Assembly (NCBI RefSeq): GCF_002854065.1
Contig: NZ_CP024147.1
DNA length: 64,000 nt
Source: Escherichia coli
Lineage (GTDB): Bacteria > Pseudomonadota > Gammaproteobacteria > Enterobacterales > Enterobacteriaceae
Strand: one strand, 5' to 3'
Below are positions 55,393-63,777 of the stretch, piece after piece. The notes beneath the pieces were generated by a model, which searched no databases, was not told the origin of the DNA, and was given only the letters and a program-made list of their open reading frames with translations. Made by a program: the position numbers and the translations under genes. Position 1 is the first letter of the stretch, and each line of letters begins with the position of its first letter.

Positions 55393-55601
55393 AATTCACC
55401 CTTCGTCTTGCGTTGATTTTCTAAGCATGGCGCTCAATTTAACCTTGAACCCAACATATTTACAGAATATTACCCGCCGTGGTTAGCGAAAGCTGGCATT
55501 TGTTTTACTTTTTAGCCGCATAAAGTCAAAATTAAGAATCCGTTACGGCTTTCTGAAAATCTTCAGCGGACCGGCGAGTATACCTGAAGAAAGGACGTTA
55601 G

Positions 55602-56579
55602 ATGCTTTTAGCTACGGCACTGTTAATTGTTGGTTTACTTTTGGTCGTTTACAGTGCCGACCGCCTGGTTTTTGCCGCGTCTATTCTTTGCCGAACCTTT
55701 GGCATCCCGCCGCTGATCATCGGCATGACGGTGGTCAGTATTGGTACATCGTTACCAGAAATCATCGTCTCGCTTGCCGCGTCTCTGCACGAACAACGCG
55801 ATTTAGCCGTTGGTACAGCCCTCGGCTCAAACATTATCAATATATTGCTGATCCTCGGTCTGGCTGCGCTGGTTCGTCCTTTTACCGTCCATTCTGATGT
55901 TCTACGCCGTGAATTACCCTTAATGTTGTTGGTCAGCGTGGTGGCCGGTTCCGTACTCTATGACGGACAACTTAGTCGCAGCGATGGTATCTTTCTCCTC
56001 TTTCTGGCTGTGCTATGGCTGCTGTTCATTGTTAAACTTGCACGTCAGGCTGAACGTCAGGGGACTGACAGCCTGACCAGAGAGCAGCTTGCAGAGCTGC
56101 CGCGTGACGGCGGATTGCCCGTCGCGTTTTTATGGCTCGGCATTGCGCTTATCATCATGCCAGTGGCCACGCGGATGGTGGTTGATAACGCCACGGTGCT
56201 GGCGAATTACTTTGCCATCAGCGAGTTGACGATGGGGCTGACGGCAATTGCTATCGGAACCAGCCTGCCGGAACTGGCAACCGCAATAGCGGGGGTTCGC
56301 AAAGGTGAAAACGACATTGCTGTCGGAAATATCATTGGCGCAAACATTTTTAATATTGTCATCGTGTTGGGTTTACCCGCGCTGATAACGCCAGGAGAGA
56401 TTGATCCACTGGCGTACAGTCGTGACTACAGCGTGATGTTGCTGGTGAGCATTATTTTTGCGTTGCTGTGCTGGCGGCGCTCCCCGCAACCGGGCCGTGG
56501 TGTAGGGGTATTATTAACTGGCGGATTTATCGTATGGCTGGCGATGTTGTACTGGTTATCGCCAATACTCGTTGAATAA
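55602..56579 (+). CDS. yrbG: Na+/Ca2+ exchanger-like inner membrane protein YrbG
   Basis: ORF 325 aa with duplicated alpha-repeat motifs (GTSLPE). Confidence 0.92.
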   Translation: MLLATALLIVGLLLVVYSADRLVFAASILCRTFGIPPLIIGMTVVSIGTSLPEIIVSLAASLHEQRDLAVGTALGSNIINILLILGLAALVRPFTVHSDVLRRELPLMLLVSVVAGSVLYDGQLSRSDGIFLLFLAVLWLLFIVKLARQAERQGTDSLTREQLAELPRDGGLPVAFLWLGIALIIMPVATRMVVDNATVLANYFAISELTMGLTAIAIGTSLPELATAIAGVRKGENDIAVGNIIGANIFNIVIVLGLPALITPGEIDPLAYSRDYSVMLLVSIIFALLCWRRSPQPGRGVGVLLTGGFIVWLAMLYWLSPILVE

Positions 56580-62441: not shown

Positions 62442-63296
62442 ATGGTACTGATGATCGTCAGCGGACGTTCAGGTTCAGGTAAATCTGTCGCCCTGCGTGC
62501 GCTGGAAGATATGGGTTTTTACTGCGTGGATAACCTTCCCGTAGTGTTGTTACCCGATCTGGCTCGAACCCTGGCCGATCGCGAGATTTCTGCCGCCGTC
62601 AGCATTGATGTTCGTAATATGCCGGAGTCACCAGAAATATTCGAACAGGCGATGAGTAACCTGCCTGACGCTTTCTCACCGCAACTACTGTTCCTGGATG
62701 CCGACCGTAATACCTTAATTCGTCGTTACAGTGACACGCGCCGACTGCATCCGCTTTCCAGCAAAAACCTGTCGCTGGAAAGTGCTATCGACAAAGAAAG
62801 CGATCTGCTGGAGCCTCTGCGTTCGCGAGCGGATCTGATTGTCGATACCTCAGAAATGTCCGTTCACGAGCTGGCAGAAATGCTGCGTACCCGTCTGCTG
62901 GGTAAACGTGAACGCGAACTGACAATGGTCTTTGAGTCTTTCGGCTTCAAACACGGTATCCCTATCGATGCAGATTACGTCTTTGACGTGCGCTTCTTGC
63001 CGAACCCGCACTGGGATCCGAAACTGCGTCCAATGACAGGTCTTGATAAGCCTGTCGCCGCGTTCCTCGACCGCCACACAGAAGTACACAATTTTATCTA
63101 CCAGACGCGAAGCTATCTTGAGCTATGGTTACCTATGCTGGAAACCAACAACCGTAGCTACCTGACGGTCGCCATTGGTTGTACCGGCGGGAAGCACCGT
63201 TCGGTGTATATTGCAGAGCAACTGGCTGACTACTTCCGCTCGCGCGGTAAAAACGTCCAGTCACGCCATCGTACGCTGGAAAAACGTAAACCATGA
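62442..63296 (+). CDS. rapZ: RNase adapter protein RapZ (YhbJ), P-loop NTPase
   Basis: ORF 284 aa with Walker A GRSGSGKS. Confidence 0.93.
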
Positions 63297-63565
63297 CCGT
63301 CAAGCAAACTGTTGAAATCACAAACAAGCTGGGCATGCATGCCCGGCCTGCAATGAAGCTGTTTGAATTAATGCAGGGTTTTGACGCTGAAGTGCTGTTA
63401 CGTAATGACGAAGGCACCGAGGCTGAAGCCAACAGCGTTATTGCGCTGCTGATGTTGGATTCTGCCAAAGGACGGCAGATTGAAGTTGAAGCGACCGGTC
63501 CACAGGAAGAGGAAGCACTGGCCGCCGTTATCGCCCTCTTTAACTCTGGTTTTGATGAAGATTAA
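63293..63565 (+). CDS. npr: phosphocarrier protein NPr (PtsO)
   Basis: ORF 90 aa, HPr-like; overlaps the rapZ stop by 4 nt. Confidence 0.93.
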
Positions 63566-63710
63566 TCTTCATCACTTTGACATTCAAATCCCTTCAAGCT
63601 CCCCCGGCAATAAGAAAAGCGCGTACTGAAATCGTTCTCAATCAACGTCAATTGTACATTTCGTGCGCTTTTTACTTTCAGAAGAACCTTAAGAAAACCT
63701 TAAGAAGCAT

Positions 63711-63727
63711 TGTTTAGGTTTCGTTTA
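63711..63727 (+). promoter_or_regulatory. candidate PhoP box upstream of yrbL
   Basis: TGTTTA-ggttt-CGTTTA: direct hexamer repeat with 5-nt spacer matching the PhoP box (T/G)GTTTA-N5-(T/G)GTTTA, ~50 bp upstream of the yrbL ATG; yrbL is known to be PhoP-activated. Confidence 0.45.
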
Positions 63728-63777
63728 AGTTAATCGACCATACTGGAGATCGTCAGAAAATATTTCCAGGAGATGGC

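Follow-up and report, generated by a model that had tools for sequence, protein, structure and literature searches.

The npr-yrbL locus

The E. coli rapZ-npr-yrbL region occupies the last 700 bases of the window, by which we mean the whole 64,000-nucleotide stretch of DNA analysed here, and the allele that the window carries is O157-like. The features of this segment, in window coordinates, are as follows.

63293-63565, plus strand: npr (ptsO), with which the rpoN operon ends, and the upstream limit of the 212-bp intergenic region
63652-63671, no strand assigned: near-invariant block TTGTACATTTnGTGCkCTTT, upstream of the PmrA box
63685-63706, plus strand: exact tandem duplication of AACCTTAAGAA (copies at 63685-63695 and 63696-63706)
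63688-63704, minus strand: PmrA/BasR box by consensus match, CTTAAG-GTTTT-CTTAAG, forming the core of the tandem 11-mer and inverted relative to yrbL
63711-63727, plus strand: PhoP box TGTTTA-GGTTT-CGTTTA in direct orientation, overlapping the yrbL -35 (19-mer with flanks, 63710-63728)
63739-63744, plus strand: CATACT, the -10 of the PhoP-dependent promoter of yrbL, unchanged in 13 taxa and 11 nt past the PhoP box
63768-63772, plus strand: Shine-Dalgarno AGGAG of yrbL, from the sequence and conserved in Escherichia sequences
63778-64000, plus strand: yrbL coding sequence, ATG at 63778, truncated by the window end (annotation match and Pfam PF10707)

An earlier note, made from the sequence alone, had named the downstream gene yrbL, and the identification is secure: the gene is 100% identical to the annotated yrbL of O157:H7 TR01, where RefSeq gives it as "PhoP regulatory network protein YrbL", and the full-length protein of this allele matches Pfam PF10707 with E = 1e-67. 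The 235 bases at 63566-63800 have a match in 5,425 of 5,426 complete E. coli genomes, with 100% identity to O157:H7 TR01 and 94.9% to K-12. The 5' part of the intergenic region (63566-63625) shows seven differences from both K-12 and O157:H7 SS52. Because identity of at least 99% over the 235 bp is reached in only 381 of the 5,425 genomes, the sequence suggests that this differing part may be a recombination patch.

The -35 of yrbL is poor, and its promoter depends on an activator. A scan of 63400-64000 for sigma-70 promoters and terminators gave no match, and an Rfam search of the same bases found no family, returning one meaningless snoRNA match (E = 0.25). Transcription of yrbL would be expected to start at about 63746-63751, the lower bound being the Salmonella S1 position transferred to the window and the upper bound lying 7 nt after the -10. 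In E. coli 720632, an IS66-family element sits directly after the -10 (CATAC), at the equivalent of approximately 63744, and parts the PhoP/PmrA-controlled promoter from yrbL.

Several other structures and sequences were noted at the locus. The stop codon of npr, TAA at 63563-63565, lies within a perfect 9-bp hairpin, GATGAAGAT-TA-ATCTTCATC, seen by eye at 63554-63573; the hairpin is retained in Escherichia sequences and is followed by no T-run. An 8-bp stem, AAAAGCGC/GCGCTTTT (63615-22 / 63665-72), which arises from the divergent 5' part of the intergenic region, was considered as a conserved terminator and set aside, as it is confined to this allele and absent from K-12 and from other species. 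A fragment of E. coli YrbL (98% identical) is also encoded on a 420-bp contig bearing the label Tannerella forsythia ATCC 43037, which is almost certainly assembly contamination.

The PhoP box and the PmrA/BasR box

PhoP control of yrbL in E. coli was reportedly described in Minagawa 2003. The earlier note had placed a PhoP-like direct repeat at 63711-63727, and both its exact sequence and its coordinates are borne out. Judged against the strict consensus (T/G)GTTTA-N5-(T/G)GTTTA, the box deviates at one position, and a match with one mismatch is not rare, with 2 observed in the window against 0.99 expected. A better test was a position weight matrix (PWM) derived from the 25 activation boxes that Zwir 2012 (PMC3335776, Table 1) lists for the 22 Salmonella promoters apart from yrbL. 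With this matrix 63710-63728 scores 22.0 bits and ranks first among 127,964 window positions, above every training site (best, 19.8 bits) and above the best score in all 50 shuffles (maximum 19.9). The second-best match, at 55620-55638, lies within the yrbG coding sequence, at its start, where it encodes LLIVGLL, and for that reason was judged a chance match.

The geometry also agrees with a PhoP-activated promoter, since 11 nt separate the box from the -10 CATACT, within the 11-12 nt that define the class with a single direct box. The Salmonella yrbL promoter has the box TCGTTTAGGTTTTGTTTAA, likewise 11 nt from a -10 CATACT, and has been assigned to architecture I and predicted to be class II, with S1 mapping in support of PhoP control (PMC3335776). 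In Shigella the yrbL box is tTGTTTAggtttTGTTTAa; PhoP shifts it in EMSA, and expression drops 50-fold in a phoPQ deletion (PMC5775216). The statement in the earlier note that yrbL is PhoP-activated is therefore in agreement with the literature on the orthologues from both genera (PMC3335776, PMC5775216). The second half-site reads CGTTTA in the window and TGTTTA in K-12, at a PWM cost of 1.4 bits. C is allowed at this place in the (C/T/G)GTTTA subclass of half-sites, and Salmonella yrbL has C in its first half-site (PMC3335776). We conclude that 63711-63727 is the published PhoP box of yrbL; the action of PhoP upon it is taken from the literature, which concerns T-allele orthologues.

Immediately upstream, the earlier note had described a tandem repeat at 63686-63710. 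The exact duplication is real, while the coordinates were one base late at the left and ran four bases too far at the right. The repeat had also been called an unexplained addition, a description that no longer stands, since it is a PmrA/BasR box, matching the consensus perfectly and having published PmrA binding and repression. The PmrA consensus is a direct repeat of YTTAAK with a 5-bp spacer, with half-sites CTTAAG and xTTAAT in Salmonella and CTTAAT and CCTAAG in Klebsiella (PMC10927774, PMC3973317). CTTAAG-N5-CTTAAG can be read on either strand, with 0 mismatches to YTTAAK-N5-YTTAAK, and the yrbL repeat is the one match to that pattern in the 64-kb window, where 0.07 would be expected.

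The orientation of the box becomes apparent when its flanks are included. On the minus strand the yrbL repeat reads CTTAAGGTTTTCTTAAGGTT, and its extended half-site CTTAAGGTT is common to the K-12 boxes of eptA (CTTAAGGTTGGCTTAAT), pmrR (CTTAAGGTTCACTTAAT) and arnB (CTTAAGGTTAAGTTAAT), each of which is oriented toward its gene. Because it is the minus-strand reading that resembles these boxes, the box is inverted relative to yrbL. With a very small PWM, made from four known boxes, this reading tops the window at 19.2 bits. The second-best match to the same matrix, 55519-55537, is intergenic, upstream of yrbG, and was judged a chance match.

A gap of 6 bp separates the PmrA box from the PhoP box, and their starts are offset by 23 bp. 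The yrbL promoters of E. coli and Salmonella have been reported to hold PhoP and PmrA sites, with the boxes about 24 bp apart (PMC2681069). Given this distance, and given that the repeat is the sole consensus match in the window, we equate the footprinted PmrA site with this repeat. PMC3335776 states, citing Zwir 2005, that the E. coli yrbL promoter is bound and repressed by PmrA; elsewhere yrbL and pmrD are described as repressed by PmrA (PMC4196223), and the regulators of yrbL are tabulated as BasR and PhoP (PMC4145685). Wherever basR, eptA and arn rise in E. coli B adapted to iron, yrbL falls, and exactly there it ranks with the most strongly down-regulated genes (PMC13405929). On its sequence and position, then, the tandem 11-mer is the PmrA/BasR box already known at this promoter, with binding and repression supplied by the literature. 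The exactness of the 11-bp tandem follows from its being made of two identical, helically phased half-sites for a response regulator of the OmpR/PhoB family.

The repeat could alternatively be viewed as a second, reverse-oriented PhoP box, of the kind that stands upstream in architecture II promoters. It is 73% complementary to the PhoP box region, and the PhoP PWM places its minus-strand sequence TTCTTAAGGTTTTCTTAAG among the best 0.07% of window positions. Its score of 6.3 bits is nevertheless below that of the weakest of the 25 training sites (9.6 bits), the sequence is a perfect PmrA consensus, and footprinting makes yrbL a single-box promoter of architecture I (Zwir 2012, PMC3335776), so that we regard a second PhoP box as very unlikely. 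The complementarity arises because two related direct-repeat motifs stand head to head.

Conservation between species and variation within E. coli

A scan for YrbL with one genome per species gave 11 usable loci, from Escherichia whittamii, other Escherichia lineages, E. albertii, four Citrobacter and Salmonella enterica subsp. arizonae. The npr-yrbL spacer is mostly unalignable among them and contains four conserved islands, namely the PmrA box, the PhoP box, the CATACT hexamer and the block at 63652-63671. Read on the minus strand, the PmrA box fits the consensus without a mismatch in 12 of 13 taxa and with one in C. amalonaticus (CCTAAT); read on the plus strand, it deviates at 1-2 positions in taxa other than E. 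coli. The form that the box takes beyond Escherichia is the canonical CTTAAGGTTTTCTTAAT. The left copy of the 11-mer is AATATTAAGAA or AACATTAAGAA in E. albertii, Citrobacter and Salmonella, and AACATTAGGAA in C. amalonaticus. Since the minus-strand reading is conserved while the plus-strand reading decays outside E. coli, the duplication is superimposed on a conserved PmrA box, and the perfect 11-mer is, on these alignments, a peculiarity of Escherichia.

Spacing is conserved as well. Across the 13 taxa, 6 bp separate the PmrA box from the PhoP box (7 bp in one strain), and in all 13 the -10 follows the PhoP box after 11 nt. The PhoP box is fixed in position in the 13 taxa; most half-sites keep the GTTTA core, and some carry the single-base departures GTTGA and ATTTA.

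Of about 5,400 complete E. coli genomes, 603 carry the exact 70-bp window allele and 3,123 that of K-12; the rest are mostly one base off the window allele (B2-type, with a GATTT spacer). Both CTTAAG hexamers are invariant in every E. coli allele aligned; directly past the second 11-mer the window has A where K-12 has G. Position 63722, in the second PhoP half-site, is C in B2/O157-type alleles and T in K-12-type alleles; by sampling, C is carried by roughly 40% of complete E. coli genomes, and its effect on the PhoP site is predicted from the sequence to be negligible.

The comparison of the repeat among strains that had been proposed alongside its discovery bears on whether it might be a neutral product of replication slippage, a small VNTR without regulatory function. 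Taken alone, an exact tandem of two copies with period 9-13 is not rare (1 observed in the window against 0.33 expected from dinucleotide shuffles), the copies are perfectly identical in Escherichia only, and copy number does vary, with three copies of AACCTTAAGAA in O157:H7 493/89 and in HCP4S3_I4, on different allele backgrounds, against two in the other sampled genomes. Two copies are, however, nearly fixed in the approximately 5,400 genomes, among which no one-copy genome was detected by BLAST; these BLAST-based one- and three-copy counts are lower bounds, as the tool joins pieces and may hide a few variants. The half-sites moreover occupy the same position with the same spacing in Citrobacter and Salmonella, where the copies are not identical, and the repeat fits the consensus of a specific regulator, one otherwise absent from the window. 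With PmrA binding and repression also reported (PMC3335776, PMC4196223), mere slippage has very little probability as an account of the repeat. A phase-variable or contingency repeat was likewise considered and rejected, as two three-copy genomes in about 5,400 do not amount to frequent copy-number variation.

The fourth island, the block at 63652-63671, has 19 of its 20 positions kept across Escherichia, Citrobacter and Salmonella, in a spacer that is otherwise unalignable, and is conserved more strictly than the PhoP box in these genera. Its two sub-blocks begin 11 bp from each other. The block shows no conserved RNA structure and no RNA covariation, and in C. amalonaticus lies downstream of a clean intrinsic terminator. 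To our knowledge, neither the consensus sequences of RstA, OmpR, TorR, ArcA, PhoB and MarA nor those of FhlA, AtoC, Zur, NsrR and sigma-54 fit both sub-blocks. The block probably serves as an additional cis-element in the control of yrbL. We propose only tentatively that it provides a third, undescribed input to yrbL; if so, it would be a site for another response regulator or DNA-binding protein acting with PhoP and PmrA. Equally tentative, and separate, is the suggestion that the rare three-copy allele of the 11-mer, which would offer PmrA three phased CTTAAG half-sites, might alter repression.

Two regulators at one promoter

Taken together, these observations make it very probable that yrbL has a dual-input promoter, activated by PhoP through 63711-63727 and lowered by PmrA/BasR through 63688-63704. 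The matches, statistics, orientation and geometry behind this model come from the present analysis, and PhoP activation and PmrA binding and repression from the literature. At low Mg2+, a phosphorylated PhoP dimer would occupy 63711-63727, overlapping the -35, and bring about class II activation, a mode established for PhoP~P at promoters of the same architecture (PMC3335776). A dimer of PmrA (BasR) would bind at 63688-63704, 6 bp upstream and head to head with PhoP, and when PmrAB/BasSR is active, through Fe3+ or PmrD-mediated activation, its binding would reduce yrbL transcription. The PhoP tests in the literature used the TGTTTA alleles of K-12 and Shigella, and the model as drawn here is for the CGTTTA allele of the window.

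With a start at 63746-63751, the centre of the PhoP box would fall at about -27 to -32 and that of the PmrA box at about -50 to -55. Repression may act by steric interference with PhoP binding, or with the alpha-CTD and upstream contacts of RNA polymerase (approximately -50 to -60); interference with PhoP occupancy or an alpha-CTD block is the most likely physical mechanism. It is also conceivable that PmrA competes for the PhoP box itself, because that box, shifted two bases to the right (63713-63729, TTTAGG-TTTCG-TTTAAG), is a PmrA consensus with one mismatch.

An inverted box raises the question of a target on the other strand, namely a minus-strand promoter, antisense to the 3' end of npr, that BasR would activate in addition to, or instead of, repressing yrbL. 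The box does point away from yrbL, in the orientation that the eptA, pmrR and arnB boxes have to their genes, and on the minus strand the hexamer TAAAAA follows it, 13 nt downstream. This candidate -10, however, is without the final T and is TGAAAA in K-12, conservation of the segment between species is lacking, the promoter scan was negative, and no ORF or Rfam RNA lies downstream, all of which leaves such a promoter highly improbable. Least credible is a hairpin or cruciform of the repeat with the PhoP box, for example a terminator or attenuator for npr read-through: the two do form an imperfect 22-nt inverted repeat with a 3-nt spacer, but its folding energy of -5.1 kcal/mol (z = -1.3) is equalled in 24 of 200 shuffles, no T-run follows, and neither a terminator-like site nor an Rfam match was found.

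The PhoP and PmrA/BasR sites of yrbL are already known, and in that light the tandem repeat is an ordinary one. What is added here is that the repeat is the PmrA/BasR box and that its inversion and spacing are conserved across three genera, together with the frequency of the C-type PhoP half-site in E. coli and the conserved 20-bp block at 63652-63671. Beyond correct annotation the significance is small. The dual-input promoter of yrbL can be considered a textbook case of two regulators of the OmpR/PhoB family integrating Mg2+ and Fe3+/PmrD signals.

The yrbL promoter is reportedly presented in Minagawa 2003 and Zwir 2005 as a PhoP-activated promoter with an upstream PmrA box. Compared with the yrbL promoters of K-12, Salmonella and Shigella, the window has the same locus, elements and spacing (PmrA box, 6 bp, PhoP box, 11 nt, CATACT). 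Relative to K-12 its PmrA box is identical, and it is an allelic variant with CGTTTA for TGTTTA and A for G. The Salmonella pmrD promoter, too, is said to be PhoP-activated and PmrA-repressed (Kato 2003). It follows the same "bi-fan" logic, with a class II PhoP box and an upstream, repressing PmrA box (PMC3335776, PMC2681069). The two promoters differ in geometry, the boxes being about 38 bp apart in Salmonella pmrD versus 23 bp at yrbL, and pmrD closes a feedback loop on PmrA. A PmrA consensus was not found upstream of E. coli K-12 pmrD.

Nearer relatives of the box itself are found at K-12 eptA, pmrR and arnB, which have the same extended form, CTTAAGGTT-nn-(C/G)TTAAT. At the K-12 eptA promoter an identical AACCTTAAGAA stands directly upstream of the BasR box, giving a third CTTAAG and the palindrome CCTTAAGAACTTAAGG. 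The boxes of eptA, pmrR and arnB face their genes from 45-81 nt upstream of the start codon and are activating, whereas the yrbL box is inverted, lies upstream of the site of another activator and is repressing.
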